Shown piece after piece: positions 4,036 to 25,947 of a DNA stretch of 34,730 nt. The translations under genes were made by a program, and so were the position numbers. This DNA comes from Candidatus Coprovivens sp. (GTDB lineage: Bacteria; Bacillota_I; Bacilli_A; RF39; UBA660): positions 1 through 34,730 of the forward strand of contig JBJFGS010000042.1 in NCBI GenBank assembly GCA_051892935.1, written 5' to 3'. The number at the start of each line of letters is the position of its first letter. The stretch's first letter is position 1. Under the pieces are notes generated by a model that saw only the letters and a list, made by a program, of their open reading frames with translations, was not told the DNA's origin and made no database searches.

Positions 4036-4613
4036 AAAGAAAAACAATAACTCTTCAGTTCATACAAAATGGAATTATTATATTAAGTAAAGAAGCAAAT
4101 AACTATCTGTTAGAAAGTGTTGATAACTATAAAATTATTAACAGAGAAAAATTTATTTTAGAAATGAATGAAATATTAAAAAAAACAAATATAAATAATT
4201 CTCTATTAACTGATAATATAAACATAATAATAGATAATACATATTCAGAATTAGATAAAGAAAATATAAATGATGTATTTATTGGATTATCATTCAATAA
4301 AATAAAATTTTTAGAGTTAACAAAACTATTCAATTTAAAAAAACAAGAACTATTAATAGATATATCCACAAATAATATTAAAATATATTATATAGATGAA
4401 GTAATTGATCAAAAAATATACTTCAATAAATATAACCAAATACTATCTATATTTATAAAAAATATTACCAATATACATAATATAAAAACAATAAAATTAT
4501 TTGGAAATAAGTGTAATAACAAAAAAATAATTAGCATATTAGAAAAATATTCAAGTGCTGAAGTATATATTTATTCACAGCCTCATCAAGTACCCATAAC
4601 CTTATTAACATAA
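4032..4613 (+). CDS. Hypothetical protein; probable highly degenerate MreB/Mbl-like actin fold
   Basis: Colinear resemblance to four MreB segments (see findings) and syntenic with mbl. Confidence 0.45.
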   Translation: MKRKTITLQFIQNGIIILSKEANNYLLESVDNYKIINREKFILEMNEILKKTNINNSLLTDNINIIIDNTYSELDKENINDVFIGLSFNKIKFLELTKLFNLKKQELLIDISTNNIKIYYIDEVIDQKIYFNKYNQILSIFIKNITNIHNIKTIKLFGNKCNNKKIISILEKYSSAEVYIYSQPHQVPITLLT

Positions 4614-4667
4614 TATATAGAAAAAAATAAATATTATGATATAATATAGGTACGGAGGATGATGGAA

Positions 4668-5207
4668 ATGAAACTAAATATTCGTGGAGAGAAAGTTACA
4701 ATTACTCAAGCAATGAAAAATTACATTACAGAAAAACTAGCGAAAGTGGATAAATATTTCGAAAATCCAGAAGAAATAAATGCTAATGTTCTTGTAAGAG
4801 TTAAAGGTTTAGAACAAATTATTGAAGTAACTGCTTTGACTAAGAAATTCACTCTAAGAGCAGAGGAATCTAATGAAGACTTTTATGCAGCAGTTGACTT
4901 AGTAGTAGCTAAACTAGAAAGACAAATGAGAAAAAATAAAGATAGATTAAATAAAAAATACAAAAATGTTGAAACTCTTGAATTCAATTTTGATTATGAA
5001 CCAGAAGAAAAAGAAGAGGAAGAAAATGTAAGTGCTATAGTAAAAAGGAAAAATATTTCAATGAAACCAATGGATGAAGAAGAAGCAGTACTACAAATAG
5101 AACTTCTAAATCATGATTTCTTTGTATTTAAAAATATCGATGAAGAATGCGTATCAGTTATTTATAAAAGAAAAGATGGCAATTACGGAATAATCAACAT
5201 GAAATAA
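4668..5207 (+). CDS. hpf: Ribosome hibernation promoting factor, long form (HPF/YvyD)
   Basis: LNIRGEKVTIT, LRAEE..DFYAAVDLVVAKLERQMRK, KPMDEEEAVLQIELLNHDFFVF, YKRKDGNYG. Confidence 0.95.
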   Translation: MKLNIRGEKVTITQAMKNYITEKLAKVDKYFENPEEINANVLVRVKGLEQIIEVTALTKKFTLRAEESNEDFYAAVDLVVAKLERQMRKNKDRLNKKYKNVETLEFNFDYEPEEKEEEENVSAIVKRKNISMKPMDEEEAVLQIELLNHDFFVFKNIDEECVSVIYKRKDGNYGIINMK

Positions 5208-5226
5208 GGAGCAATGCTCCTTTTTT
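5206..5226 (+). terminator. Rho-independent terminator after hpf
   Basis: AAGGAGCA-a-TGCTCCTT followed by T run. Confidence 0.75.
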
Positions 5227-5390
5227 ATTGCTTATAAAATACTAAATATCATCAAAATAACAAAAATATAAGCCTTTTTATTGAATTTATTAAAAAAATA
5301 ATTTACAATATGAATTACGCGAATATCAAAGCAAAAAATATTTAATACTTGACATATTTTTGATATAATATAACACGTGGAGGAATGCAT

Positions 5391-7889
5391 ATGGGATTTT
5401 TTAGAAAATTAATTGACTCAGAGTATAAAGAATTAAAAAGGTTTGAAAAAATAGCAAATGAAATAGACGCATTAAGTGAAGAAATGGAAGCTTTAAGCGA
5501 TGAAGAATTAAAAGCAAAAACAGCAGAATTTAAAGAACAATTGGAAAATGGAACAGATTTAGAAGATCTTGTAGTACCAGCATTCGCTGTAGTAAGAGAA
5601 GCTGCATATCGTGTAATTGGTGAAAAACCTTATTTCGTTCAAATATTAGGTGGTTTAGCAATTCATTATGGTAATATAGCAGAAATGAAAACTGGTGAAG
5701 GTAAAACTTTAACAGAAACAATGCCAACATACTTAAATGCTTTAACAGGTAAAGGTGTTCACATTGTAACAGTAAATGAATTTTTAGCAAAACGTGACTC
5801 AGAGTGGATGGGCAATATATTTAGATTCTTGGGATTAACTGTTGGTCTAAATATGAGAGAAATGTCACCTTCTCAAAAAAGAGAAGCATATAATTGTGAT
5901 GTTTTATACTCAACAAATAATGAAATCGGTTTTGATTATTTAAGAGATAATATGGTAGTTAGAGCTAAAGATAGAGTTCAAAGACCATTAAATTTCTGCA
6001 TAGTTGATGAAGTAGACTCTATTTTAATAGATGAAGCAAGAACACCATTGATTATTTCAGGTGGAAAATTTGATTCAAAAGACTTATATACGTCAGCGGA
6101 TAGAGCTGTAAAAAAATTAGATGCTGAAGATTATACTGTAGATGAAAAAACAAAAAGTGTATCATTAACTGAAAGTGGAGTAGAAAAAATAGAAAAAACA
6201 TTCCATGTTAAAAACTTATATGATATAGAAAATGCAGTATTAGTTCACCATTTAAATCAAGCATTAAAAGCAAACTATGGATTTAAAAACGATGTTGATT
6301 ATGTAGTAGAAGATGGAGTAGTAGTAATTGTAGATCAATTTACTGGTCGTTTAATGCATGGTCGTCAATTTAGTGATGGTTTACACCAAGCTATTGAAGC
6401 TAAAGAGGGCGTAAAAATAAATGAAGAAACAAAAACAATGGCTACAATAACATTCCAAAATTTGTTCAGAATGTATAATAAATTATCTGGTATGACAGGT
6501 ACAGCTAAAACAGAAGAAGAAGAATTTAGAGATATTTATAATATGTACGTAATTCAAATTCCAACTAACAAACCTGTTATAAGAGAAGATTTACCAGATT
6601 TAGTATATGCAACTGAAAAAGGTAAATTAAAAGCTATAGTCAATAAAATTAAAGAAATTCATTCGACAGGACAACCAATATTAGTTGGTACTGTATCTGT
6701 TGAAAACAATGAAAAATTAAGTGCACTTCTAAAAAAAGAAGGATTAAAACATGAAGTTTTAAATGCTAAAAATCATGAAAGAGAAGCTGAAATAGTTGCA
6801 AAAGCAGGTGAAAAAGGTGCTATAACTATTGCTACAAATATGGCAGGACGTGGTACCGACATTAAATTAGGAGAAGGCGTAGTAGAATTAGGTGGCTTAT
6901 ACGTAATAGGAACTGAAAGACATGAATCACGTCGTATTGATAACCAATTACGTGGTCGTTCAGGACGTCAAGGAGATCCAGGTACATCTCAATTCTTTGT
7001 ATCATTTGATGATGATTTAATGAGACGTTTCGGAACAGACAAAATAAAGCAAATGCTATTAACTGCAGGCTTCACTGATGATCAAGCAATTCGCTCAAGA
7101 GCTTTTACCAAAAGTATAGAAACAGCTCAAAAGAGAGTTGAAGGAAATAACTATGATACTCGTAAATCACTATTAGATTACGATAACGTAATGAATGAAC
7201 AAAGAGAAATTATATATTCAAGAAGAAATGAAATCCTTGATCAAGAATCTATATCAGAAAGAACACAAGCAACATTTGATTCAAATATTGCAAATTTAGT
7301 AAATAACCACATCGAACCAGAAGGATATTTAACAGAAGATGATAAATCAGAAATTATTGAATATTTAAATACTAATTTAATTAAAACAACCAAATTAGAA
7401 GTATCAGAAATAGAAGATATGAAATCTGAAGAAGATGTAAAAAAATATCTAACAGAAAAAGTTAAAGCTGATTATGTCGAAAAAACTAAAGATGTACCAA
7501 AAGAGGTAATAGCAGAATTTGAAAAAGCTATAGCTTTAAGAGTAATCGATGAAGCATGGATAGACCACATTGGTGCTATGGAACATTTAAGAGAAGGTAT
7601 TGGACTTCGTGGATATGGTCAAACAAATCCTCTACAAGCATATACAATGGAAGGATATGAATTATTCGATGATTTAATGGGAAATATCGAATCAAAAATA
7701 TCAATCTTCTTATTGAAAGCTGAAGTAAGACAAAATACTGAAAGAAAAGATCAAAGTAGCAAAAAAATTATCCATGATACACATTTAAAAACAAAAGGAA
7801 CACCAATAAAAAAAGAACAAAAAATTGGCAGAAATGACAAATGCCCATGTGGCTCAGGGAAAAAATATAAACAATGTTGTGGCAAGTAG
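5391..7889 (+). CDS. secA: Preprotein translocase ATPase SecA
   Basis: MKTGEGKT, DEVDSILIDEARTPLIISG, ATNMAGRGTDI, QLRGRSGRQGDPG, C-terminal CPCGSGKKYKQCC zinc motif. GGAGG before ATG 5391. Confidence 0.99.
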   Translation: MGFFRKLIDSEYKELKRFEKIANEIDALSEEMEALSDEELKAKTAEFKEQLENGTDLEDLVVPAFAVVREAAYRVIGEKPYFVQILGGLAIHYGNIAEMKTGEGKTLTETMPTYLNALTGKGVHIVTVNEFLAKRDSEWMGNIFRFLGLTVGLNMREMSPSQKREAYNCDVLYSTNNEIGFDYLRDNMVVRAKDRVQRPLNFCIVDEVDSILIDEARTPLIISGGKFDSKDLYTSADRAVKKLDAEDYTVDEKTKSVSLTESGVEKIEKTFHVKNLYDIENAVLVHHLNQALKANYGFKNDVDYVVEDGVVVIVDQFTGRLMHGRQFSDGLHQAIEAKEGVKINEETKTMATITFQNLFRMYNKLSGMTGTAKTEEEEFRDIYNMYVIQIPTNKPVIREDLPDLVYATEKGKLKAIVNKIKEIHSTGQPILVGTVSVENNEKLSALLKKEGLKHEVLNAKNHEREAEIVAKAGEKGAITIATNMAGRGTDIKLGEGVVELGGLYVIGTERHESRRIDNQLRGRSGRQGDPGTSQFFVSFDDDLMRRFGTDKIKQMLLTAGFTDDQAIRSRAFTKSIETAQKRVEGNNYDTRKSLLDYDNVMNEQREIIYSRRNEILDQESISERTQATFDSNIANLVNNHIEPEGYLTEDDKSEIIEYLNTNLIKTTKLEVSEIEDMKSEEDVKKYLTEKVKADYVEKTKDVPKEVIAEFEKAIALRVIDEAWIDHIGAMEHLREGIGLRGYGQTNPLQAYTMEGYELFDDLMGNIESKISIFLLKAEVRQNTERKDQSSKKIIHDTHLKTKGTPIKKEQKIGRNDKCPCGSGKKYKQCCGK

Positions 7890-7915
7890 TAGGTTTTATA
7901 AGGGTTTGCGAGGAT

Positions 7916-7990
7916 TTTGACCACGCGAAATTTGACCAAAAACTACGATTTGACAACATTTTGACCACAGAATTTTGAATTGTGGTCAAA
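7916..7990. repeat. TTTGACCAC repeat cluster, putative integrase arm-type sites (left end of element A)
   Basis: Copies at 7916, 7931, 7949, 7960 and an inverted copy at 7982. Confidence 0.75.
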
Positions 7991-8019
7991 AATTACTCAA
8001 TGAATGTGATTAATGTTAG

Positions 8020-8049
8020 AAAGATGTCATCAAACGATGATATCTTTTT
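8020..8049 (+). terminator. Terminator-like hairpin downstream of secA
   Basis: AAAGATGTCATC-aaac-GATGATATCTTT plus T run. Confidence 0.6.
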
Positions 8050-8075
8050 GTTTGCTCACAGGAAGGAGTAAAAGT

Positions 8076-8744
8076 ATGGTAAGTGTTAGAAAGAGGATTA
8101 AAAGGAAATAGTGTAGAAAATCTATCGGTCAAGAATATAAAAAGATTACTTCTAATTTAGAAAAAGAATTAATCAAAAAAGAAAGTGTTCTAGAAAAGTT
8201 TATTAATAATTTAGAAGAACAATTAAAAACCAATAAACCAATACTATTTGATAAAGATCATGTAAGAGTAAGTAAAGAAACATTAGATTGTATGAATCAA
8301 GTAATAAAAGATGCTAAAAAGGTTATGGAATTTCAACCTAAAATGGAGCAATTATTTAAAGAAGCAAATACTTTTAGTAAGAGTCATCAAACATTAGAAA
8401 AAGAAAATAATAATCTTCAAAGGGAAGTAAATGTACTTACTACAATAAATCAAAATTTAACAAAGGAGAACCATCATCTTAAAGACTTTTTAAAAGCTAT
8501 TTTGGAAGTAATTAAAAATTTTTTTAGGGAATTACTACAAATTGGTAGTGAACCTGTAAAAGAAACTATTACAAGCGAAGTAAAGAAAATTTATCATACA
8601 GATTTTTTCAGTACTAAAGATGTGTTTGAAATATCTAAGGGTATTGATAAAGAAGATGAATTATTTGATTATGCAGAAATTCCAAATTATTATAAGATTA
8701 GAAATAAAAAATCATCTAACAAGGGTAGTGATTTATGCTTATAA
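8076..8744 (+). pseudogene. Deletion fusion: integrase-like N-terminus (MVSVRKR) plus C-terminal part of a MobV/Pre relaxase
   Basis: Strong RBS GGAAGGAG and ATG 8076 giving only 11 codons. The overlapping frame reads LERGLKGNSVENLSV / QEYKK (frameshift near 8130), like the end of a Mob_Pre domain, and continues into the coiled-coil ORF 8292-8744. Confidence 0.6.
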
Positions 8745-8811
8745 ATAATTTTTGGCGTTTGTAATCAACGAGTATTTATTATATAATTTAGTTATATTTG
8801 AGGTGGTAATA

Positions 8812-9900
8812 ATGTCTTTTTATGGTTTATTAAGAGAGTTGGAAAAAATAAATAGAGCTGCTGAACGTGAGCAGGCTAGAAGAGAAAGAATAAATGCAAG
8901 AAATCAAGAAATATATAGAAGAAATTTAGAGAAGCAACGAAAAGCAGATCATATGATTAGTCAGCAAAAAAAAGCAGATGATTTAACTAAAAAAATAATT
9001 GATCAATATACAGATTATGATAAGTTTAAAGATAAAATCTTATCTTACCCTAAATTTTTTAGGTTTGATGATTTTAAAAAGAAAACTATAAAAAAGAAAT
9101 TTGTGTATAATGTTCCTATGCCTCAAAAAAGTAGTAATTCTAGTCAAATTAAAGTTCCAAAAGAAAGCAAATTAGAACAAAAGTTAACTTTTTTACGAAA
9201 AAGAAGATTATCTATAGAAAACAAAAAACAAGAAATGGAACTAAAAGAAACTCAACAATATAATGATTTGCTAAAAAAATATGAAAGTAATAAGGCAAAA
9301 GCATTAAAAAAATTTGAATTAGAACAATTTAAATTAAATGCGGAAATAGATGAATTTAATAAATCCGTAGATAATTGGAAAAGTGGTTGTGCGAATTATG
9401 ATAAAGAATCAATTGATAAGTATTTAGCACATTTGCTAAATTTCTTTATTAATAATACAAATGACAAACTTGTTAGTAAAGTTAGATATGATTATATTGA
9501 TAATAAATTGATTTATGAAGTATTTTTAAAAAAAGAAAATGAATTATTTCCATGTGAAGGATACAGATATTATAAACAAAAAGATTCTATAGAACCTATT
9601 ATAACTAAGAAAACAACAATTAATACTATATTAAAAGAATTAATTCCTAATGTTGCTATAACTTTGATTGATATACTTTTTAAAAATGATGAACTCGATT
9701 TATTTAATGAAATAATTGTTAATGTTTATTATACAAGAAAGTGCTGTTCTTCTATTAAATTACTTAAAGATGAATATAAATCTTTTAACTTGAATGAAGA
9801 AGATGATTATTATTATGTTTATGATCATTATATGAAAAATTATAAAACGCTTACAACTGGTGTTAAACCTTATGATAGCATGTATGTGGAGTTGGTTTAA
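8812..9900 (+). CDS. Hypothetical protein resembling the N-terminal region of long Mrr-family restriction endonucleases, without the nuclease domain
   Basis: Charged helical N-terminus (RAAEREQARRER). YRYYKQKDSI..VAITLIDILFKND..IIVN..CCSSI..EY..FNL..VKP pattern, ending where Mrr_cat normally begins. RBS GAGGTG before ATG 8812. Confidence 0.55.
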   Translation: MSFYGLLRELEKINRAAEREQARRERINARNQEIYRRNLEKQRKADHMISQQKKADDLTKKIIDQYTDYDKFKDKILSYPKFFRFDDFKKKTIKKKFVYNVPMPQKSSNSSQIKVPKESKLEQKLTFLRKRRLSIENKKQEMELKETQQYNDLLKKYESNKAKALKKFELEQFKLNAEIDEFNKSVDNWKSGCANYDKESIDKYLAHLLNFFINNTNDKLVSKVRYDYIDNKLIYEVFLKKENELFPCEGYRYYKQKDSIEPIITKKTTINTILKELIPNVAITLIDILFKNDELDLFNEIIVNVYYTRKCCSSIKLLKDEYKSFNLNEEDDYYYVYDHYMKNYKTLTTGVKPYDSMYVELV

Positions 9901-9903
9901 TTT

Positions 9904-11256
9904 ATGGGAATGTTTTTTGGTAAAAAAGAAGAATTGGAAATTGCAAATAAAAAGATTGAAGAGTTGCAAAAAGGTAATGAAAGTTTATCAAGGGAAAATG
10001 ATGAATTAAAAAAGAAATTAGAGAATAAAAGTGAATTTCTAAATGAAGTAAAAAATGAAACAGCAAAATTAAGCAATGAAAAAATATCGCTTGAATCAAA
10101 AAAAGAAGAGTTGGAAAAAGAGTGTTCTGATTTAGAAAGCAAAATTGCTCTTAAGAGAAAAGAGTATGTTGAATTAGAAGACAAAGTATTATTACAAAGT
10201 TTCGGTTTATATGAGCCACAATATGATTTTGCTACTTCATCTTTATATAAAGATAAACTTACTAATATTAGAAAAAATCAAAGTGAAATGGTAAAAAATG
10301 GTAGTGCTGCTACATGTGCAAAAAAATGGATTATAGAAGGTAGTACAAGTAAAGGACAAAAATTTACAGATGATAATATTAAACAAATTTTGAAAACTTT
10401 TAATAATGAATGTGAAAATGCTATATTAAAGGTTAAGTTTAATAATATAGATTCTATAAAGAAGAGAATTACTACCTCTTTTAATTCATTGAACAAATTA
10501 AATATGACTAATAGAGTAAGTATATCTAAAAAGTATTTAGATCTAAAATATGATGAAATGTATTTAGCATATGAATATGCTCAAAAAGTACAAGAAGAAA
10601 AAGAAGAATTAAGAATTCAACGTGAATTACATAAAGAAGAATTGAGAGTTGCAAAAGAACTAGAAGAAAAACGAACTGAAATTGAAAAAGAGCAACACCA
10701 TTATAGTAATATATTAAAAAGAATTCTTGAACAAATAAATGTAGAAAAAAATGATGAAAGAAAACAGTTACTTTTTGAAAAGAAAGAGGAAATTGAAAAT
10801 AATCTGGTTGACTTAGATCAAGCATTAAAAGATGTAGATTATAGAGAAGCAAACCAAAGAGCTGGATATGTATATATTATTTCTAATATAGGAGCTTTTG
10901 GTAAAGATATATATAAAATAGGAATGACTAGAAGACTAGATCCTCAAGATAGAATTGATGAACTTGGAAGTGCTTCTGTTCCGTTTAGGTTTGATGTACA
11001 TGCCTTTATATTTTCAGATGATGCTCCAAAATTAGAAAATGCATTACATAAAGCGTTTGAAAAAAATAGGGTTAATATGATGAATAACAGAAAAGAATTC
11101 TTTAATATTACTTTAGAAGAAATTGAAAAAGTTGTAAAAGAAAACTATGACAAAATAGTAGACTTTAAACATGAACCTGATGCAGAACAATATAGAGAAA
11201 CATTAATTAAACTTGGTAAATCGTTACCAGTATTTGATGAAGATACTGAAAAATAG
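9904..11256 (+). CDS. DUF4041 plus T5orf172/GIY-YIG-like nuclease (PD-lambda-1/SNIPE-like)
   Basis: LLQSFGLYEPQYDF, TFNNECE..KVKFNN, RAGYVYIISNIGAFG..YKIGMTRRLDP.DRIDELGSASVPFRFDVHA, RKEFF. Confidence 0.9.
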   Translation: MGMFFGKKEELEIANKKIEELQKGNESLSRENDELKKKLENKSEFLNEVKNETAKLSNEKISLESKKEELEKECSDLESKIALKRKEYVELEDKVLLQSFGLYEPQYDFATSSLYKDKLTNIRKNQSEMVKNGSAATCAKKWIIEGSTSKGQKFTDDNIKQILKTFNNECENAILKVKFNNIDSIKKRITTSFNSLNKLNMTNRVSISKKYLDLKYDEMYLAYEYAQKVQEEKEELRIQRELHKEELRVAKELEEKRTEIEKEQHHYSNILKRILEQINVEKNDERKQLLFEKKEEIENNLVDLDQALKDVDYREANQRAGYVYIISNIGAFGKDIYKIGMTRRLDPQDRIDELGSASVPFRFDVHAFIFSDDAPKLENALHKAFEKNRVNMMNNRKEFFNITLEEIEKVVKENYDKIVDFKHEPDAEQYRETLIKLGKSLPVFDEDTEK

Positions 11257-11268
11257 AAAGGTAAAAAT

Positions 11269-12030
11269 ATGAATAATGAATATAAGTATTCAAGAGATGA
11301 AATTGTAGAAAAAATATATGAAGAAGAATTATCTATTAATGAATTGTTAAGTATAAAAAATCAAATGAAAGCTTTTAATTTTGATGAAGATGATTTTAAA
11401 TATGTTGATGAGATGATTGAAGATTGTTTTGATGTAATGGAATTAAGTCAGTTAAAAGAAATTAGAAACTATGTTATTGAGTTAAATATTGATACCATTA
11501 TTGTAGATAAATATATAAAGAGAAAATCTCCTTTAACAAATGAATTAATTGAGACTATGGAACCAGATGATATAGCTTATATAGTTAATGAGGGTGGATT
11601 AACGGTAGAACAAATGTTATTTATAAAAAAATTATGTAAAAATATAAAAATTGATTCAGATGTTTTGACTTATTTAGATGAATCTATAAATGATGAAATT
11701 TCAGACTTGGATTCTGAAGATGATATTATTGATACAAAGAGAATGTTTGATAAATATGGTATAACAAATGCTAAATTGAACAGAAAGTTAAGAAATGTTT
11801 CGGTAGATGATGGGGAAACAGCTGGTACAATTGAGAAACGAAAAAATAATGATTCTTCATTATCAGGTGAGATTTTGGTTTCTAATCTAGCTGAACATCT
11901 ATTTTTGTTTTCAGCATTAAATAATGATTCTTCGTCAACAAAGGAAGAAATAGATAATAATTATGAACTATATCAATATGAAGAGGAAGAACTTGAAGAA
12001 GATGATTATTATTATGAGGATTTAGACTAA
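11269..12030 (+). CDS. Very acidic hypothetical protein with two ~85-aa internal repeats
   Basis: RBS AAAGGT, D/E-rich, tail EEEELEEDDYYYEDLD. Confidence 0.8.
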   Translation: MNNEYKYSRDEIVEKIYEEELSINELLSIKNQMKAFNFDEDDFKYVDEMIEDCFDVMELSQLKEIRNYVIELNIDTIIVDKYIKRKSPLTNELIETMEPDDIAYIVNEGGLTVEQMLFIKKLCKNIKIDSDVLTYLDESINDEISDLDSEDDIIDTKRMFDKYGITNAKLNRKLRNVSVDDGETAGTIEKRKNNDSSLSGEILVSNLAEHLFLFSALNNDSSSTKEEIDNNYELYQYEEEELEEDDYYYEDLD

Positions 12031-12040
12031 AATGTCTTTT

Positions 12041-12082
12041 TAGTAACACACTACGATATTGGCAGAGTCAATAACTATGTGA
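12041..12082 (-). other. Putative MobV-type oriT (nic region)
   Basis: Minus strand reads TAGTGTGTTA (12044-12053), the pMV158-family nic motif, next to the imperfect inverted repeat TATTGGC-aga-GTCAATA. Confidence 0.5.
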
Positions 12083-12407
12083 GCCAAGGATAAACCCTTT
12101 GGAATCCCAATAAAGCACCAATACTACAAACTTTCGTAAGTAGTAAAGGCGCTTTTTTTATTTCAGCATTTAGCTTCATAAAAAAATAAAAAGACTTTTC
12201 TCACTTTCATTGAAATATTATTTCAACAAAACGTGTTCGTCTTTTTATTTGAAATACTTTCGCTACGTATTTTTCTATAATTAATGAGTATAATACAATC
12301 AGATGTTAAGATACAAAATTGTTAAAAAATAACATTTTGTATTTTTTAGAATACAAAATTGAAGATTACATAAAATAGTTATATAATCATACTGTGAGGT
12401 GATAATA

Positions 12408-13613
12408 GTGATTAAAAGAGAATTATATTTATCAAAAATAAGACCTTTTTATGAATCTGATTTAATAAAGGTTATAGTAGGAATAAGAAGATCTGGTAAG
12501 TCTACTATAATGATGCAAATTATGGATGAATTAAAAAATAATAATATTTCTGAAAAACAAATTATTTATATAAATTTTGAATATAAAGAATATTCTTTTA
12601 TAAAAAATGATGATGATTTATATGAATACATAAAATCACTTATTAAAAATGATTCTAAATATTATATATTCTTAGATGAAATTCAAAATGTATCTAAATG
12701 GGAAAAAGTAGTTAATTCATTTAAATCAAAAGAAAAGTATTCTATTTTTATAACTGGATCTAATAGTGATTTATTATCTGGAGAATTAGCAACTCATATT
12801 GCAGGTAGATATGTTTCATTTAAAGTATATCCATTTAAATTCTCGGAAGTATGTGATTTAAAAGAACTAAATGATAAAAACAAATATGAATTACAAGAAT
12901 CTTTTGATAATTATATTAAATGGGGAGGACTTCCTCAAAGATTTGAGTTTGAATCAGATATGCAAATTAGAACATATTTATCAGATGTATATGATTCTAT
13001 TATTGTAAAAGATATAATTGATAGATTTAAAATAAAAGATTTAGATTTATTTAATAGAATTGTTGAATATATTGTAACAACTCCATCAGAAACATTTTCA
13101 GCAGAAACTTTAGCAAATTACTTTTTGGGTAAAGAAGAAAGAGGAGTGGCTAAAAATACACTTTATAATTACTTAGAATATATGGTAAAAGGAAACTTAA
13201 TTAATAAATGTGAAAGATATGACATTAGAGGTAAAAGAATTTTATCGGGAAAATATAAATATTATTTATCAGATTTAGGATTAGGCATGATTAAAAATGT
13301 TAATAGAAGACCTCAGATGGTAGCGTATTTAGAAAATGTTGTGTATAATGAACTTCTAGTTCGAGGATATGATGTTTCGGTAGGAAATATTCAAAACGGA
13401 GAAGTAGATTTTGTAGCAACAAAAGATAATAATATTGAATACTATCAAGTTACATATACACTATCAACTGATGAAGTAATTGGAAGAAAATTTGGGGCAT
13501 ATAAATCTATTGAAGATAATTACCCTAAATATGTAATATCTACTGATACATTTGATATGTCACAAAATGGAATAATCCATAAAAATATAATAGATTGGCT
13601 TTTAAATAAATAA
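12408..13613 (+). CDS. AAA+ ATPase, AAA_14 plus DUF4143 (COG1373-like)
   Basis: GIRRSGKS Walker A, IFLDEIQ Walker B, ITGSNS, GGLP, KYYLSDLG, LENVV, EVDFV. GTG 12408 follows GAGGTGA. Confidence 0.9.
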   Translation: MIKRELYLSKIRPFYESDLIKVIVGIRRSGKSTIMMQIMDELKNNNISEKQIIYINFEYKEYSFIKNDDDLYEYIKSLIKNDSKYYIFLDEIQNVSKWEKVVNSFKSKEKYSIFITGSNSDLLSGELATHIAGRYVSFKVYPFKFSEVCDLKELNDKNKYELQESFDNYIKWGGLPQRFEFESDMQIRTYLSDVYDSIIVKDIIDRFKIKDLDLFNRIVEYIVTTPSETFSAETLANYFLGKEERGVAKNTLYNYLEYMVKGNLINKCERYDIRGKRILSGKYKYYLSDLGLGMIKNVNRRPQMVAYLENVVYNELLVRGYDVSVGNIQNGEVDFVATKDNNIEYYQVTYTLSTDEVIGRKFGAYKSIEDNYPKYVISTDTFDMSQNGIIHKNIIDWLLNK

Positions 13614-13657
13614 TTGATATAATGAAATAAGAAACAAAATGTTGTTAAATGATGATT

Positions 13658-13803
13658 CTTGTCCACATTTTGTCCACGTAACATATAAAATTAGTAATAT
13701 TTATAATATAGATAATACTAATAATATAATGTACTAAATGCCAATAAAATAAGGAAAAACACATAATACTATTTGGACCATATATAAAGAAAATATGGTC
13801 AAA
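13658..13803. repeat. Right-end sites of element A
   Basis: TTGTCCAC direct repeats 11 nt apart (13659, 13670), same spacing as 7949/7960, plus inverted repeat GACCATAT..ATATGGTC in 13773-13803. Confidence 0.65.
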
Positions 13804-13809
13804 GTTGGA

Positions 13810-13854
13810 GCATATAGATTAGAAAAGAAGTATAAATAATGTTGTGATAAATAG
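13810..13854 (+). repeat. Second, decayed copy of the secA 3' end (att site)
   Basis: gca tat aga tta gaa aag aag tat aaa taa tgt tgt gat aaa tag aligns ungapped, codon by codon, with cca tgt ggc tca ggg aaa aaa tat aaa caa tgt tgt ggc aag tag. Confidence 0.8.
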
Positions 13855-14070
13855 TTAAAAGTCTTGAAATAAAGGCTTTTTCTATACGTAAAATTAGCTA
13901 ATTTTATTTAGATACATTATTAAATACGCTGCGAGAAAGTATCTAAAAAGTATCTAGAAAGAAAAAGTAAACAAGGGAAACGTAATAATTTCAATGATTT
14001 AAAAGTTTTGAATCACTGCCATAATGATAGTGATAAAAGTATAGTATAATCTATATAGGAGTTGATAATA

Positions 14071-14573
14071 ATGAATTATATTATTAGAAAAAAGAAAGAA
14101 AAGATTGTGCAGATGTCGCTCATATTGTAACTGTAGCTTGGAATGAAACATATAAGGGAATAGTTTCAGATGATTTTTTAGAAGGATTATATTTAACTGA
14201 AGAAGAAAGAGCTATTAATTCATATAACAAATTTGATGAAAATGATAATCATCAATATGTTTTAGAAGTTGACGGTAAAGTAATAGGATTCGTTAATGTT
14301 GGTTCTACAGATGAAGATGAAAATGATAGTTGTGGGGAATTACATGCCATTTATATAATTAATGGTTATAAAGGTAATGGTTATGGTAAAAAATTAATAA
14401 ATGCTGGTGTAGAAGAATTAAAAAAAATGGGATACAGTAAAATGGTTATAGGATGTTTAGAAGGGAATACATCTAATGAATTTTATAAACACATAGGTGG
14501 TAAATTTATTAAGAAAAGAGTATTTAAAAAATTAAATCTACTAGAAAACGTTTATTATTTTGATGAAATTTAG
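14071..14573 (+). pseudogene. GNAT acetyltransferase split by a -1 frameshift (pseudogene or recoded gene); absent from the ORF track
   Basis: RBS AGGAG, MNYIIRKK, then the -1 frame ERKDCADVAHIVTVAWNETYKGIV..GELHAIYIINGYKGNGYGKKL..GCLEGN.SNEFYKHIGG to TAG 14571-14573. Confidence 0.85.
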
Positions 14574-14697
14574 ATACGTTTTTAGATACGTTCTGCTAGT
14601 GAAACATAGCATAACCGAGTGTAGCTAAGTGCATTAAAGTGCAAAGTTAAAGGGTAAAATGTTCTAAAGAGGAGCAGAATGACATATATTAAAAAGT

Positions 14698-14740
14698 CAT
14701 GTGGAAGTAGTAAAAAATATAAAGATGTTGTGGAAAGTAA
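14698..14740 (+). repeat. Third copy of the secA 3' end (att site)
   Basis: ca tgt gga agt agt aaa aaa tat aaa ga tgt tgt gga aag taa encodes CGSSKKYK / CCGK-stop with a 1-nt deletion. Confidence 0.85.
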
Positions 14741-14916
14741 CTCGCAAACTCAGATAATATAAGGTAAAACGCGAGTTTTTCTTTTTGTCAAAAAATAGAC
14801 CCAAATTGGCTTTAGAACCATTTTGTATTAAAAATAATCGTTTAATTGATACAGATTTATTGTTAGAACAATAATTCAAAAAAAATACGATATAATAGTT
14901 ACAGGAGTTGACTAAA

Positions 14917-15501
14917 ATGTCTAAATATAAAAAGATGAGAGAATACTCGCATGAAGAATTTGTAAAATTGGTTCTGAGTTTAACTGAAAAAGAATTATTA
15001 GAATTGAGTTCAAAGTATGGTGGATATCCCGTACTATTTAGAATGGCCTTAGATGAAAGAATTAACCATATACCATTTATTCAAACCGGATCAGCAATAA
15101 TAATTAGAAATGAAAAAGGACAAATACTATTACAAGAGAGAACAGATAGAAATAAATGGGGGCTACCAGGAGGCTGTCAAGATCTTGGGGAAGACTTAAG
15201 AGTAACAGCTGTAAGAGAAGCATTTGAAGAAACAGGAATTAAATTAAATCCAAATTCAATTGAATTAATAGATACGCTTTCTGGAGAAACAAGAAAGAAT
15301 AGCTATCCCAATGGAGATATAGTATATAATAATACATCCTTATATCTTGCAGATATTAATGATATAGATGCAAAAAGCCTAAAAGGAGATTCTGAAACAA
15401 AGAAATTACAGTTTTTTAATCCTAATGAAGTTCCAAAAAATATTATGGATGAAGACTTAATAAAATCATATATAACTTATATATCAAGAGTAAATAAGTA
15501 A
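14917..15501 (+). CDS. Nudix hydrolase
   Basis: Nudix box GGCQDLGEDLRVTAVREAFEETG, ILLQERTD..WGLPGG, YPNGD. Confidence 0.92.
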   Translation: MSKYKKMREYSHEEFVKLVLSLTEKELLELSSKYGGYPVLFRMALDERINHIPFIQTGSAIIIRNEKGQILLQERTDRNKWGLPGGCQDLGEDLRVTAVREAFEETGIKLNPNSIELIDTLSGETRKNSYPNGDIVYNNTSLYLADINDIDAKSLKGDSETKKLQFFNPNEVPKNIMDEDLIKSYITYISRVNK

Positions 15502-15670
15502 TATTCTAAAACATAAAATTAATAATTATATAAATATACCAACTTACAAAAGTATTATTCAAATTAAAGATTCATTCTTAAACACATAATAATTCTATAC
15601 ACACATATAAATAATTATTGACAGAAAGATTATATATATTATAAGATAAACCCCATAGGGAGAGTTTGGT

Positions 15671-16105
15671 ATGGAAAATACAATATAATATGAAAATGTT
15701 GAATGTCCTGATACAGAAGGACAACTAGGAAATATACCATTAGAAGATGAATAAGAAAACTATAGCAATTATGAATTAAGTGAAGCAATTTATAAAGAAG
15801 TCTTAAAAGTTGATAGATACGAATATTTAAAAGATTCGGAGAGTAAAAAAGCTAGATGTTTTGGAGTTCTCTCAGGTGTTATGGCTGCCCTAGCATTTTA
15901 TAGTATAGCAACTTATACTAGTGAAGAAGACTTTGCTAAAAGTGTATTATTTGTTACAGGTGGAATGGGTTGTTATAGGTCTTCGGTAGTAATTTTTAAA
16001 GCTCTTTATAGTAAAATGAAATATAATAAAAAAATAAAAGAATTAAAAAGAAATATAAAGAGCCTAGAAGAAATACAATCCCAAAAATTAAAAAAAGGAA
16101 TATAA
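15671..16105 (+). pseudogene. Two-TM membrane protein pseudogene
   Basis: ATG 15671 after GGGAGAG is in frame with ORF 15881-16105 but is interrupted by TAA at 15686 and 15752. Confidence 0.65.
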
Positions 16106-16108
16106 ATA

Positions 16109-16345
16109 GTGAAAATAAATATAAAAGATATTATAACTTTAAATGATAATAGAGAATATATAGTTGTCAGTAAAGTTAGTATTAAAGAAAAAATATATTA
16201 TTATTTAGTAGAAAATAATAATACAAGCAATATAATATTTTGTTACTTAAATAATAATCGTCTTGTAGAAATAAATGACAATGAACTAATTATTAAATTA
16301 TTACCACTATTTATAGAAGCAGCTAAAAATGATCTTGAAAGCTAG
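16109..16345 (+). CDS. Small hypothetical protein (weakly DUF1292-like)
   Basis: RBS AAGGA, GTG start, IITLNDNREYIVV..YYYLV, followed by a hairpin. Confidence 0.7.
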   Translation: MKINIKDIITLNDNREYIVVSKVSIKEKIYYYLVENNNTSNIIFCYLNNNRLVEINDNELIIKLLPLFIEAAKNDLES

Positions 16346-16356
16346 TAGTAAACTAT

Positions 16357-16386
16357 AAAAAATTAGAATTTAAATTCTAATTTTTT
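16357..16386 (+). terminator. Terminator hairpin
   Basis: AAAAAATTAGAATTT/AAATTCTAATTTTTT palindrome. Confidence 0.55.
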
Positions 16387-16532
16387 ATATGATTTATTTT
16401 CTTTATAAGTATATTTAATAAGATATTTATAAATTAAAACTATAAGAAAAAAAAGCCAACAAGAAATAAAACGTTAGTAAATAGTAATTAACATATCTGT
16501 GATATAATAAAACATATGAAAGGAAATAAACA

Positions 16533-16787
16533 ATGAGAGAAATTAAAGTAAATAGAATATATAAACATTTCAAAGGAGATTATTACTTAGTTGAAGATAT
16601 AGCAAAATACTCAGAAACTGAAGAAAAGGTTGTCATATATAGAAAACTATATGATGATGGAAGTTTATGGGTAAGACCACTCGATATGTTTCTAAGCGAA
16701 GTAGATCACGAAAAATACCCAAATGTAGAACAAAAATATAGATTTGAGTTACAAGAAGTAGAAAGTGTAGCAAAAAAATTTAAATAG
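16533..16787 (+). CDS. DUF1653 domain protein
   Basis: [22 protein letters not shown]....WVRPLDMF. Confidence 0.9.
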
Positions 16788-16849
16788 TTTCATAAAAATA
16801 ATATTATATAAAAAGTAATATTATTTTTTTATTAAAAAAAGAGTAAAAT

Positions 16850-16878
16850 TTGCTAAATAATATCTCCTATGCTAGAAT
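16850..16878 (+). promoter_or_regulatory. Sigma-A type promoter with extended -10
   Basis: TTGCTA-17 nt-TAGAAT with TG upstream of the -10. Confidence 0.55.
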
Positions 16879-16903
16879 ACTTAGCGTTTAAGAGGGGGAT
16901 ACT

Positions 16904-18298
16904 ATGACAACAATATCTAATAACTATTTTGAAGAATATACTACTTTTATAGAAGAATTACAAAAAGAAATTTTAAGAATTCAATTAAGATATGATGAAT
17001 GCCAAGCTTTAATTAGAAGTGAACTATCTAAAGGAATGATAGCAAAAGAAGTCGCAGAAAAAATGCTATCAGTAAAAATTAATCAATTTGCACCAAGTAT
17101 TGATCAAATGTATAGATTATCTAAAAGAGAAGTAGACTTCATTAATGAATACGCAGCTTTAGATGCTAATGGAAACATTCTAGCCACTATGTTAAAAGAA
17201 GAATATTTAGAAAAATCTGAATTGTTAGAGTATATTAAAAAATCTGTTTTAACAGCTCAATACTATGAAAATATGGATCCTGTAACAAAAAGGAACCATT
17301 TAAAAAGCGTATTAATAAATGGTGTAATGCAGAATATAAATAATTTAAAAGCTAAAGCTTCAGTTCTATTAAAAAAATATGGTGAAAAAATAAAAGAATC
17401 AAAAGGTTATCAACAAATATTAGCAGATATAGAAAAATATAATCATTCAATAGATTCTTTCGAACAAATAATGGATTGTGACGAACAAAAATTAATTGAT
17501 TTAATAGAATCGATATATAAAATAGATTATAAATACTATAACTGGTATATGAATATGAAATTAAAGAGTTTAAAAGAAAATGGAGAATTATACACAGATC
17601 ACTCTAAAACAATGGCAACCATAAACAGTTTTGCTCAAGATGTAATAGATAATCATACAAAGACAAAAGATTTAAGTAATTCATTATTTACACTTAATAA
17701 TAAATTACTATCATTCCTTGAATCAATAAGTTCATTTGATTTATCACAATTCTTGCCAAAACAACCTGCTAAACATTCAATATTTAAGAAATCTAAACCA
17801 GAAGATAATAAAGAAGTACTAAAATCTATATTTTATAACTTAGTTGCTTTACCAGGTGCAGCAGCATATATTCAAGCTACTTATGGAGATCCTAATAAAC
17901 CAGTAGATTTAACCGAGTGTTTTGAAAAAATATTTATTTCACAATACGAAGAAGAACAAACATATGTTGATATAAATATCTTTATTCGTGATTTTCAAAA
18001 ATTAGTAATTTCTTACTATAAAACAGTTATAGAAAAAGCTCAAAAAAGTCTGAATTCACAAATGAATATATCAGGAGGAGCAAAAGTTGCCCTTGCAAAT
18101 GGAGTAGAAAAAGGTTATAAAGAAGCCTTACTTCACGAACAAGCTTTTAATGCATCATCAATTAACTTATCATCTATATTAAAAGGTTTTACAACAGAAG
18201 AACAACAAAAAATATTTTCAAGTTTAACAGCAATTTTGGAACAAGGATATGGCTATAATCCTCAAAATCCAGATTTAATTCAAAAGAGAAAACATTAA
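16904..18298 (+). CDS. Hypothetical alpha-helical/coiled-coil protein (464 aa)
   Basis: Long ORF with RBS, promoter and terminator. No recognisable motif. Confidence 0.85.
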   Translation: MTTISNNYFEEYTTFIEELQKEILRIQLRYDECQALIRSELSKGMIAKEVAEKMLSVKINQFAPSIDQMYRLSKREVDFINEYAALDANGNILATMLKEEYLEKSELLEYIKKSVLTAQYYENMDPVTKRNHLKSVLINGVMQNINNLKAKASVLLKKYGEKIKESKGYQQILADIEKYNHSIDSFEQIMDCDEQKLIDLIESIYKIDYKYYNWYMNMKLKSLKENGELYTDHSKTMATINSFAQDVIDNHTKTKDLSNSLFTLNNKLLSFLESISSFDLSQFLPKQPAKHSIFKKSKPEDNKEVLKSIFYNLVALPGAAAYIQATYGDPNKPVDLTECFEKIFISQYEEEQTYVDINIFIRDFQKLVISYYKTVIEKAQKSLNSQMNISGGAKVALANGVEKGYKEALLHEQAFNASSINLSSILKGFTTEEQQKIFSSLTAILEQGYGYNPQNPDLIQKRKH

Positions 18299-18311
18299 TT
18301 ATTTAAAACTA

Positions 18312-18344
18312 AAAAAAAGGTTCAAAATAGTTGAACCTATTTTT
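18312..18344 (+). terminator. Terminator hairpin
   Basis: AGGTTCAA-aatag-TTGAACCT plus T-rich tail. Confidence 0.65.
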
Positions 18345-18413
18345 ATTATTATAATATTTGACATTTCTTTTATCATGAGATAATATATTGCCACTAAAAA
18401 GGGATGAAACTAG

Positions 18414-19799
18414 ATGAAAAGAAAAACAAAATTTAAACTAATAGCAGGTGTACTAGCTAGTTCATTATTTATAAGTGGATGTAAGTTAGATTATAATTAC
18501 ATAATAAAAAGCGCAAAAGCCGATGTAAAAAAGAATCCTAATACTTCAACATCAACTCCAGATAGAATAGAGTTAGATGAGACAGACCTAAAAAATCTAG
18601 AAGAAACCTTACCTAATATAGAGATATCAATATCTGAAACGCTTAATGAACATCAAGAAGAAGCAACTCCTTCTGAAGAAACTTTAGAATCTGAAAAAAT
18701 AGAAGAACAAGAAACAATACCAATCGAGTATACATATCAATGTGATGTTACTTATATGGAAAAAGAAACAGAATTAAAAGCAGGACCAAGTAGTGTTTAT
18801 CCAACAATCAGAAAACTTGAGATAAATGAAGAAGCAATAAAAATATTCACAGCAAAAAATGGATGGGATTTAATAAAAACAAAAGACTATGTTGGTTATA
18901 TAAAAAATGAAGCAATATCTTATCAAACAGAAGAAAGAACAACTAAAGAAAAATATACATTAACAGAACAAAAAGATATAGTAGTAACCACTTCAATGCT
19001 AAATTTTAGGATGGCTCCAACAGTTGAATCAAATATTATTAAAACATTTAATATTGATACTGAACTTGAAGTAATAGCAACGGTAGATAATGGATGGCTA
19101 GCAGTTAGATATAATGGTCAAGTTGGTTTTGTTCATGGAGGATATACAATATCAATGCTTGATATAGCTAATTCATTATATCCAGAATTAGAATTAGATG
19201 AGATAGATATAAAAAAAATAGTATATTCCACTACTAGTTTAAACTTGAGATGTGGTAGCAGCACAGACTTTGAATCTCTACTTATGTTAGAAAAATACGA
19301 AACTTTAAGAGTAATTGGTGAATATGATAACTGGTATTTTGTTTTAACTAATGAAAGAAACTTTGGATTTGTAAGTAAAGAGTATACAAAAGAACTAGAT
19401 GAAAAATGTATTGTAGTAGATAAAAGTTGTCAACAATTATATTATTATCACAGAAATAAATTAATATACACTACAGAAGTAACCACAGGAAAAGACTCAA
19501 CGCCTTCCGACACCGGATTATTTAGAATTTGGCGTAAGGACGCTGACACATATTTAACTGACAACAAAACATATAATTCCCATGTTGATTACTGTTTATA
19601 TTATAATGGAGGAGAAGCAATTCATGATGCAGATTGGCGTTATACATATGAAGTTCCAAATGTTCCAGAAAGTAAAAGATTTGGAAGTGAACTATATCAT
19701 ACATATGGAAGCCATGGTTGCATAAACACTCCCCACGATATTGCTGGAAAATTATTTGAAGAATCTGAAACTGGTGATAAAGTATTAGTCCATAAATAA
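18414..19799 (+). CDS. Lipoprotein with three bacterial SH3 domains and an L,D-transpeptidase (YkuD) domain
   Basis: Lipobox-like ISGC, LNFRMAP/LNLRCG..GW...Y....GFV repeats, IVVDKSCQQL, VTTG, AIHDA..SHGCIN catalytic motif. Confidence 0.9.
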   Translation: MKRKTKFKLIAGVLASSLFISGCKLDYNYIIKSAKADVKKNPNTSTSTPDRIELDETDLKNLEETLPNIEISISETLNEHQEEATPSEETLESEKIEEQETIPIEYTYQCDVTYMEKETELKAGPSSVYPTIRKLEINEEAIKIFTAKNGWDLIKTKDYVGYIKNEAISYQTEERTTKEKYTLTEQKDIVVTTSMLNFRMAPTVESNIIKTFNIDTELEVIATVDNGWLAVRYNGQVGFVHGGYTISMLDIANSLYPELELDEIDIKKIVYSTTSLNLRCGSSTDFESLLMLEKYETLRVIGEYDNWYFVLTNERNFGFVSKEYTKELDEKCIVVDKSCQQLYYYHRNKLIYTTEVTTGKDSTPSDTGLFRIWRKDADTYLTDNKTYNSHVDYCLYYNGGEAIHDADWRYTYEVPNVPESKRFGSELYHTYGSHGCINTPHDIAGKLFEESETGDKVLVHK

Positions 19800-19821
19800 A
19801 CCCGATATATTCGGGCTTTTT
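19798..19821 (+). terminator. Terminator hairpin
   Basis: CCCGA-tatat-TCGGG plus T run. Confidence 0.65.
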
Positions 19822-19891
19822 CTTGATTAAAATTTGACAAAAAACACATTGTTTATTAGTATAAATAACTATAAAAAGGGGTTGTTTTTAT

Positions 19892-21670: not shown

Positions 21671-21694
21671 AAAGTACTTATTTAAGTACTTTTT
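21670..21694 (+). terminator. Terminator hairpin
   Basis: AAAAGTACTTA-tt-TAAGTACTTTT. Confidence 0.65.
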
Positions 21695-21804
21695 TCTATT
21701 ATATATACACTTCTTTAACGATAATATAACTAAATAAATATAAATTACAATATCAAATGATATAATTTATTTAGGAATATTATAATTCTACTATAGGAGG
21801 ATAT

Positions 21805-23166: not shown

Positions 23167-23177
23167 AGGAGAAAAAT

Positions 23178-24854: not shown

Positions 24855-24881
24855 ACCAATAAATAGAAAGGTGTAATAATA

Positions 24882-25136
24882 ATGTTCAAAGAATTTACAG
24901 AATTTCCAAATCCAGAGAAAAAAGACTATGATATAGCATCATCTAAAGATATGGGAGAAATTAATCAATACCTTTTAGAAATAGTTGACCTAGTAGGTTT
25001 CTTAGAAGATGGAGAATGGGGAAAATATGGAATAACTGAAGAAGAATATATGCATCCTACAGAAGAAACAGTAAATAAAATAAGATCATATCTAAATAAT
25101 ACTATTCAAATAAGTCATTCCCCAATAAAGAAGTAA
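24882..25136 (+). CDS. Small acidic hypothetical protein
   Basis: RBS AAAGGTG, 84-aa ORF. Confidence 0.7.
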   Translation: MFKEFTEFPNPEKKDYDIASSKDMGEINQYLLEIVDLVGFLEDGEWGKYGITEEEYMHPTEETVNKIRSYLNNTIQISHSPIKK

Positions 25137-25191
25137 TCTTGTATTATTTCTTTTTTTATGCTAGTATAACAACCTATATAGGGGGATTACT

Positions 25192-25920: not shown

Positions 25921-25947
25921 ATGTGATATAATAAATGTGGTGATAAT

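Follow-up and report, generated by a model that had tools for sequence, protein, structure and literature searches.

The secA locus and its tail copies

The stretch of DNA analysed here (the window: 34,730 nucleotides of Candidatus Coprovivens sp., GenBank assembly GCA_051892935.1, contig JBJFGS010000042.1, forward strand) carries an intact secA gene that is followed by an array of integrated elements joined at repeated copies of the secA zinc-finger tail. The repeated tail comprises the last 14 codons of secA (44 nt). The gene and the three tail copies are as follows:

5385-7889, plus strand: secA, intact, 834 aa, with the SEC-C zinc-finger motif at its end (open reading frame (ORF); Pfam SEC-C, residues 816-834)
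7846-7889, plus strand: tail copy 1, which is the live end of secA and forms attL, the left junction of element 1
13811-13854, plus strand: tail copy 2, displaced and decayed, joining element 1 to cassette 2
14698-14740, plus strand: tail copy 3, displaced, with one substitution and a one-base deletion

An earlier reading of this DNA, made from its letters alone (the sequence-only reading), had placed three tail copies at 7845-7889, 13810-13854 and 14698-14740, and all were located there. Using an ungapped position weight matrix (PWM) of intact tails, copy 1 scored 61.2 and copy 2 scored 15.9, with copy 3 reaching 47.1 when its one-base gap was permitted, all far above the maximum of -7.3 obtained over 200 shuffles of the window. 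Chance similarity was ruled out by these shuffles together with reversed-pattern controls, as was an origin from unrelated genes with SEC-C domains, since the array copies start at the crossover and follow arm repeats. The decay of copy 2, described previously as mainly G>A and C>T, was counted as six disallowed changes, four G>A and two to T. The substitution of copy 3 is one G>A, and G>A was found to be the most frequent lesion across displaced tails (18 of 57 counted). The six A/T-ward changes of copy 2 (13811-13854) fall within 44 nt, yet the adjoining right end of element 1 shares 91% identity with the right end of the element of a relative (G007). No additional tail copies were found with the PWM at positions 14760-26100 of the window, and the rest of the window's assembly held no tail copy above noise.

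Distribution of secA-tail arrays

A degenerate tail pattern was matched in 252 of 301 genomes of the family, with at least two tails in 109 of the 301, at least three in 44, at least four in 15 and up to eight per genome, while the reversed pattern, used as a control, gave 0 matches. The pattern misses decayed copies, including both of those in the window, and these array counts are therefore floors. Presence/absence variation with breakpoints at the tail, as expected for elements that integrate there, was identified: genome G023 possesses an empty site at which prfB directly follows secA, with arrays found in other relatives. Among 83 closed intervals (bounded by a tail at both ends) from arrays hand-picked for their richness, with the window's two intervals counted as one, the median length was 1.6 kb, most intervals contained one or two genes on the secA strand and a profile of the integrase of integrative and mobilizable elements (IMEs) was matched in 10. 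The longest arrays consisted of seven closed units.

An order-level scan returned almost nothing beyond the same family (199 of 200 matches), and one sister-family genome was found to carry an array. Outside the family, the IME-type integrase was identified in 2 of 265 genomes of the class, one with a tail at the start of its contig and one without.

Two integrase lineages at the secA tail

Matches to an alignment of the IME-type integrase were found in 56 of the 301 family genomes, with a tail at a distance of no more than 1.5 kb at 25 of the 30 best loci. Arms at these 25 loci were TGTCCAC, TTTGCAAA, TGTGTGC, TTCCTC or similar, and never TAGATA. Intact IMEs span 10-14 kb. They begin with the tail and intA, followed by a gene of approximately 220 aa, an HTH gene resembling replication genes, a candidate excisionase with HTH_17, and intB; Mob_Pre comes next, then the conserved non-coding block and cargo, and the right arm and displaced tail close the element. 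PF00589 and a SAM-like domain were identified in both intA and intB of one such element (L280), and Mob_Pre is followed by a MOBV-type nick motif. The ORF lists of the closed 10-14 kb IMEs showed no obvious transfer operon, secretion-system families not having been searched for.

The intact IMEs of L278, L280, L281 and L282 encode two related tyrosine integrases, with intA situated at the left end and intB between the excisionase candidate and mob, and intB also recurs in rep-xis-int-mob modules of a similar kind that have no tail close by. The relaxase gene has relatives at congener loci without secA tails (L021, L022 and L027), accompanied in L021 and L022 by the oriT-like block and by a nearby gene that we take, from its sequence, to encode a serine recombinase. 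The mobilisation module, to judge from these loci, is common to elements with different targets. Judging by first residues, some cargo genes of secA elements in other genomes resemble those for a ribosomal protection protein against tetracycline, an acetyltransferase of streptogramin type and an ABC-F protein (L283:8691-10613, L281:6603-7268 and L289 oriented 4119-5642).

The second lineage was found on phages with TAGATA arms. Among the matches listed, 2 of 23 TAGATA ends that stay open (reaching no further tail) run into an integrase, and both are prophages with a convergent integrase, a repressor and recombination genes. A scan of a viral collection gave 15 loci, of which seven, from six records, represent the same kind of secA prophage; the remaining eight were not secA-array junctions, being nearly all other SEC-C genes, and were excluded from later counts. 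Two IMG/VR records of 40,114 and 35,139 bp (CheckV 100%, TerL present) share the layout of tail, TAGATA left arm and convergent integrase, ending with a TAGATA right arm and a displaced tail. TerL was identified in 3 of 3 IMG/VR records, and G148 encodes the integrase, S24 repressor, TerL and portal of a temperate tailed phage. Two viral records (L235, L239) were also observed to contain, downstream of the lysin, a protease-like gene ending in a SEC-C tail much like that of secA; this tail, unrelated to the array, is a possible secondary site.

In a quick tree of 63 rows, the IME and phage integrases formed two well-separated groups, with the secA phages grouped together (support 88) and a sister group beside them. 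Three sister integrases likewise lie in secA-tail elements. Two of the sister elements have the order secA, tail, arm, three cargo genes, second arm tandem and integrase, and their arm variants, TAGATCC or TGGAGCC, recur on integrase-free cassettes. In the TAGATCC group, a short tail-like relic was noted by eye before the second tandem, as if a cassette had fused to its helper.

The proposal that the secA tail is an attachment site for several distinct tyrosine integrases is borne out by the tails at IME-integrase loci, those at complete secA prophages and the separate groups of the tree. Intact elements with an integrase beside secA were also found, as 24 of 29 junctions that precede an intact integrase lie at secA, a count biased toward loci fetched for their integrase. 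The remaining five lie behind another unit, which in three cases is a TAGATA cassette. An age order with the newest unit next to secA had been suggested; it persists as a trend, but as a strict rule it was rejected on account of these 5 of 29 junctions and of copy 2 of the window being more decayed than copy 3.

Tail replacement and position of the crossover

At 360 junctions, up to four of which are possibly misclassed, the intact motif was encoded by all 129 secA ends and by 188 of 231 displaced tails. Pairs of junctions with a common downstream element showed tail mismatches below background, falling to zero at the 3' end, and for most of the tail, pairs with a common upstream element did not depart from background. 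In 10 of 19 clusters with a common downstream element, the whole tail was kept from its first bases behind different upstream partners. A 962-bp cassette was found to be 100% identical in two genera from the crossover and leading tail through its right end, with trailing tails that differ. These observations agree with the earlier suggestion that incoming elements supply their own synonymous tail. Tail copy 1 of the window differs at 2 of 44 nt from the tail of an IME group from other genera, which fits the supply of the live tail by element 1.

In TAGATA right ends, C precedes CWTGTGG in 95% of cases, but IME right ends leave this position free, suggesting that the crossovers of the two systems are offset by one base.

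Interval 1, an IME remnant

Interval 1 of the window, between tail copies 1 and 2, contains the following features:

7917-7989, plus strand: arm-type repeats at the left of element 1, with four direct copies of TTGAC(C/A)A(C/A) and one inverted, of TTGACCAC type (putative arm function)
8076-8096, plus strand: intA stub, the first ~7 codons (MVSVRKR) of an IME integrase with a ribosome-binding site, the remainder deleted (aligns with the start of the intact G004 integrase)
8097-8744, plus strand: 3' half of a Mob_Pre (MOBV) relaxase gene, fused to the integrase stub by deletion (residues 223-423 of 429, 58% identity; Pfam family from an intact relative)
8812-9900, plus strand: cargo, 362 aa, without Pfam or PADLOC match
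9904-11256, plus strand: cargo, DUF4041/T5orf172 protein, PD-Lambda-1-like anti-phage candidate (PADLOC E 3.5e-152)
11269-12030, plus strand: cargo, 253 aa, acidic, without Pfam or PADLOC match
12026-12266, minus strand: putative oriT, the conserved non-coding block that follows mob in intact IMEs
12408-13613, plus strand: cargo, AAA_14 and DUF4143 ATPase, PADLOC candidate PDC-S01 (E 6e-145)
13659-13677, plus strand: right arm tandem of element 1, TTGTCCAC twice, ~153 nt ahead of the crossover, the usual IME spacing

The left end of interval 1 aligns with that of congener G004 up to the first codons of the intact tyrosine integrase of the latter, after which the match breaks off. On this alignment, interval 1 is an IME after an internal deletion from approximately codon 7 of the integrase into the relaxase, and can be categorized as a remnant resembling a cis-mobilizable element (CIME). 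It retains both ends, the oriT-like site and two defence-like genes, its integrase and relaxase genes are both truncated and it originates by decay of an IME. The block at 12026-12266 is a putative oriT and contains a MOBV-type nick motif, TAGTGTG/TTA, on the minus strand at 12044-12053. This is the sequence around the nick site of the pMV158 oriT in the text available of PMC5863519. In both intervals of the window attL and attR are retained, with arm repeats at the family spacing at both ends, although the function of the shared junction, the decayed copy 2, is doubtful.

Interval 2, the third cassette end and the stretch to prfB

Interval 2 is an 887-bp cassette with TAGATA ends and a single frameshifted GNAT gene as cargo, possessing no integration or transfer genes. 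Features from copy 2 onwards are:

13908-13957, plus strand: left arm repeats of cassette 2, a TTAGATAC-type direct pair and an inverted pair
14071-14573, plus strand: GNAT acetyltransferase gene with one frameshift near the 5' end, sole cargo of cassette 2
14569-14589, plus strand: right arm tandem of cassette 2, TTTAGATAC twice, 129 nt ahead of the crossover, as in secA prophages
14741-14830, plus strand: left end of a third cassette, a hairpin and the TTAGAACC arm variant (82-87% identity to cassette left ends in other genomes)
14917-15501, plus strand: NUDIX hydrolase gene, probable cargo of the third cassette
25948-27046, plus strand: prfB with its programmed frameshift site, directly after secA in empty-site relatives

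The window contains the right tandem of cassette 2 a single time and none of 100 shuffles contains it, and the right end resembles those of cassettes bearing other cargo. The stop codon of the GNAT gene sits within the first right-arm repeat (14569-14573), so that the gene abuts the recombination arm without a spacer. Each interval had been described as having its own repeat family at both ends; this is the case for both intervals, but the same word does not recur at both ends of interval 1, the right end of which carries the variant TTGTCCAC.

The left end of the third cassette was absent from the sequence-only reading. A relative of its NUDIX gene is the first gene after a TAGATA left end in L131, and no right end of this cassette was detected after copy 3. 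The array had also been held to separate secA from prfB. This stands for the tail-bounded part, ~6.9 kb of the 18.1 kb between the two genes; the other part is without a tail copy, and 6 of 8 later genes tested there have syntenic relatives in G004 or G003. Among these later genes, positions 18414-21670 encode two SH3-repeat cell-wall proteins that are paralogues of each other; an L,D-transpeptidase domain is present in one and a C39 peptidase domain in the other, and both are syntenic in G004. The prfB gene displays the usual internal Shine-Dalgarno sequence and CTT TGA frameshift site.

The window's own array looks inactive, owing to the absence of a helper integrase from its assembly, the decayed middle junction and the frameshifted cargo gene. 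A phage-type integrase on contig C41 of this genome was rejected as a candidate helper, since its place in the tree is outside the secA clade. Beyond the array, no arm set of TAGATA or TGTCCAC type was found in a junction context in this assembly.

TAGATA cassettes and their spread

Interval 2 and many similar cassettes consist of phage-type ends with only one or a few genes between them. Among the matches listed, 56 TAGATA cassettes close at the next tail, with 50 of these also having TAGATA at the right end and none encoding an integrase. No remnant of a phage integrase was identified in the TAGATA intervals among 140 closed intervals, and no recombinase was found among 97 representative cassette proteins at E<=1e-6. 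The claim that the array had lost its integrases thus applies to interval 1, in which about seven integrase codons are left, but not to interval 2, the population of which has no integrase in any of the 56 closed cassettes, the matching enzyme being found on prophages. The matches listed from a collection-wide TAGATA scan are mostly from uncultured Bacilli, including CAG:710 and CAG:878, which, from these names, we take to belong to the order RF39.

Cassette ends were found to align closely with the ends of complete secA prophages of 35-40 kb; a 1,468-bp cassette ranked first among 177 cassettes for the left end of the 40-kb phage and fifth for its right end. Twenty-one pairs among 177 closed cassettes shared at least 90% identity across 90% or more of their length, and in the seven pairs with both secA genes in view the cassettes were 96-100% identical and the secA genes 64-74%. 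One and the same prophage adjoins secA directly in one host and follows an integrase-free cassette in another.

Cassette cargo formed 97 clusters among 130 proteins, 48 with a Pfam match, including seven GNATs, methyltransferases, kinases, a second methionyl-tRNA synthetase, ABC transporters and HTH regulators, and 49 without. PADLOC, applied to 47 of the 97 representatives and four window proteins, additionally identified a type II restriction-modification pair, an AbiL-like pair and a PDC-M59 pair. A unit of 720-730 bp, 96% identical in two genera (L044, oriented 8021-8750; L045, oriented 4573-5292), was observed to lack arm repeats, its right end being a decayed secA coding piece from upstream of the tail. 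This suggests a rare second route by which host DNA is captured along with the secA end.

Proposed mechanism and alternatives

We consider the most probable explanation, at roughly 0.7, to be CIME-type accretion on the secA tail with a phage integrase as helper for the TAGATA cassettes. The Pro-Cys-Gly codons (C/C[A/T]TGTGG) that open the zinc-finger tail would be the crossover for two distant tyrosine-integrase families, one carried by the 10-14 kb IMEs and the other by temperate phages and satellite-like elements. Every element would bring a 44-nt synonymous copy of the tail, leaving SecA intact after integration, and the prior tail would be pushed to the far end of the incoming element, with tails accumulating as junctions. 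At the level of sequence comparison, the site, the replacement of the tail, the two integrase lineages with matching arms and the decay of the window's IME can be regarded as established, as can the recent transfer of integrase-free cassettes, subject to the assembly caveats given below. We infer from their ends that the TAGATA cassettes were moved by the phage integrase.

A junction consists of right arm, core and left arm and is attP-like, so that a prophage adjoining cassettes could excise together with them. The excised composite would be packaged and would integrate at the secA of a new host through either junction, the phage later departing alone; the formation of free cassette circles in a lysogen is an equally possible route. 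The attP-like junctions would also permit circular permutation, which could place a cassette ahead of an intact prophage. Recombination between near-identical tails probably deletes or reshuffles units, to judge from breakpoints inside tails. It is quite possible, as a tentative extension, that the TAGATA cassettes persist as a class of their own: minimal elements, unable to move by themselves, that comprise two phage arms, the recoded 14-codon secA end and between one and three genes. A rare temperate phage would give them integrase and transport, forming an integron-like exchange on an essential gene in gut Bacilli with small genomes, and cassettes would also be joined for good to helpers, serving as cargo slots.

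Several points weigh against the phage-helper explanation. Helpers are rare, as a TAGATA-type prophage integrase beside a tail was found in 1 of 300 family genomes, with sister integrases in three more, and the window's assembly (92% complete) is without an intact integrase of either secA clade. The integrase tree, being a quick version, carried a long-branch-join warning. Five sequencing runs contained shares of 0.05-0.19 of the stretch, too little to weigh as evidence. TAGATA ends were chosen by pattern (at least 123 left-end loci, 120 distinct ends, 79 with long flanks), and are thus subject to selection. Tails differ in their 5' half in 9 of the 19 clusters with a common downstream element, indicating a second process of extra recombination between tails. 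All genomes compared are metagenome assemblies, in which collapsed repeats or misbinning may raise the identities.

The strongest alternative is pure decay, whereby intervals arrived as full IMEs or prophages and shrank in place, cassettes being dead scars and shared ones being due to homologous recombination or inheritance. Interval 1 of the window is clearly a remnant of this sort, arrays often contain broken IME integrases, intact integrases mostly adjoin secA (24 of 29) and the sister layout of attL, cargo, integrase and attR would yield a cassette by one deletion. However, no TAGATA cassette contains a phage-integrase fragment, both arm tandems are preserved at fixed spacing and the motif is intact in 188 of 231 displaced tails, even though these are untranslated. 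Nor does decay readily account for the cassettes that are 96-100% identical between hosts whose secA genes share 64-74% identity and that often occupy different positions in the array, or for the three integrase-free cassettes between secA and an element with an intact integrase, and we regard it as unlikely.

The commoner IME integrases could instead move TAGATA cassettes in cis through the distant junction, with conjugation rather than phage packaging carrying them between genera. In its favour are the matches to this integrase in 56 of 301 family genomes, the Mob_Pre gene and oriT-like site of the IMEs, crossovers of both systems at nearly the same bases and, in the text available of PMC5704250, composites of elements with very different integrases and att sites reported to excise. 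This leaves unexplained the phage arm motif at both cassette ends and the C at -1, a base kept by 95% of TAGATA right ends but not by those of IMEs, and as a full account it is very unlikely; the route may operate alongside the phage helper rather than replace it.

Least probable, and hardly to be expected, is an integron-like platform on which a resident host recombinase (e.g. Xer-type) captures and shuffles cassettes without a mobile helper, since for all that it would fit the up to seven closed units of one to three genes, nearly all in secA orientation with a median of 1.6 kb, the cargo of GNATs, methyltransferases and restriction-modification pairs and the rarity of helper prophages, the site has no recombinase gene fixed next to it (empty sites having secA-prfB), the ends of cassettes match those of prophages, arm variants follow the integrase nearby and the junctions are duplicated gene ends and presumably not palindromic attC sites.

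Accretion with a phage helper would provide a concrete route by which accessory genes, those for defence and modifying enzymes among them, flow between genera in a gut lineage that is large and uncultured. The zinc-finger end of an essential protein is repeatedly replaced by mobile DNA, with phages and IMEs competing for the same few bases. The 44-nt tail also offers a simple marker for cassette mining; about half of the cassette proteins (49 of 97 representatives) have no Pfam match.

Comparison with known systems

In the ICESt1/ICESt3 family of Streptococcus thermophilus, whose members are integrative and conjugative elements (ICEs), tyrosine integrases act at the end of a housekeeping gene, and CIMEs, which lack the genes for integration and transfer, still have attL and attR; tandems of ICEs and IMEs with chimeric internal sites, transfer of CIME-ICE tandems and prophages as tandem partners are also described (PMC5704250). 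The secA arrays resemble this accretion in the gene-end target, the tyrosine integrases, the integrase-free units with both att ends and the tandems. They differ in the target, the secA zinc-finger tail ('secA' occurs 0 times in the available text of PMC5704250), in comprising up to seven closed units and in the commonest units, which are phage-ended without trace of an integrase and can lie between the target gene and an intact helper.

At the ssrA islands of Dehalococcoides, many direct gene-end repeats downstream of one conserved gene bound tandem strain-specific islands, and a CIME-like accretion is discussed (PMC3146451). That system, in the available text of the same source, has a CcrB-like recombinase (DsiB), an RNA gene target and a 20-bp repeat, whereas the secA arrays have tyrosine integrases of two lineages and a 44-nt protein-coding tail varying at synonymous sites. 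SCCmec, a staphylococcal cassette chromosome (SCC), and the Enterococcus cassette chromosome (ECC) use the 3' region of rlmH, with direct repeats of ~50 bp, variable cargo and remnants with att sites (PMC6222049). The 3' region of a conserved protein-coding gene, direct repeats and variable cargo are likewise features of the secA arrays. SCC and ECC, however, use the large serine recombinases CcrAB and are tens of kb in size (PMC6222049, text available), in contrast to cassettes of 1-3 kb at secA, where the integrases are PF00589 tyrosine recombinases and not CcrAB/C. The tycheposons of Prochlorococcus are tyrosine-recombinase elements, some satellite-like, that reuse one site with partial gene copies between them, newer elements pushing older ones outward (bioRxiv 10.1101/2020.12.28.424599). 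Their targets are tRNA and tmRNA genes, and integrase-free cassettes with the ends of an intact helper phage are not described in the available text of that report.

A literature search found no paper on secA as an integration site of this kind, supplementary integration-site tables being outside its reach, and nothing on gene cassettes in RF39.

Integrons are arrays of co-oriented single-gene cassettes with a repeated recombination site between them and similar types of cargo. The secA arrays differ from them in having no fixed intI or attI, in sites that are duplicated gene ends with arm repeats and presumably not attC hairpins, and in many cassettes that appear, by eye, to have their own promoter-like sequence and terminator-like hairpin. 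In place of a sedentary integrase beside attI, the integrases next to secA are those of mobile elements, and neither empty sites nor most arrays contain them. By the features tested, the secA arrays are neither an integron nor an SCC. If cassettes are indeed moved with the assistance of phages, these arrays would link specialised transduction, CIME accretion and integron-like arrays.

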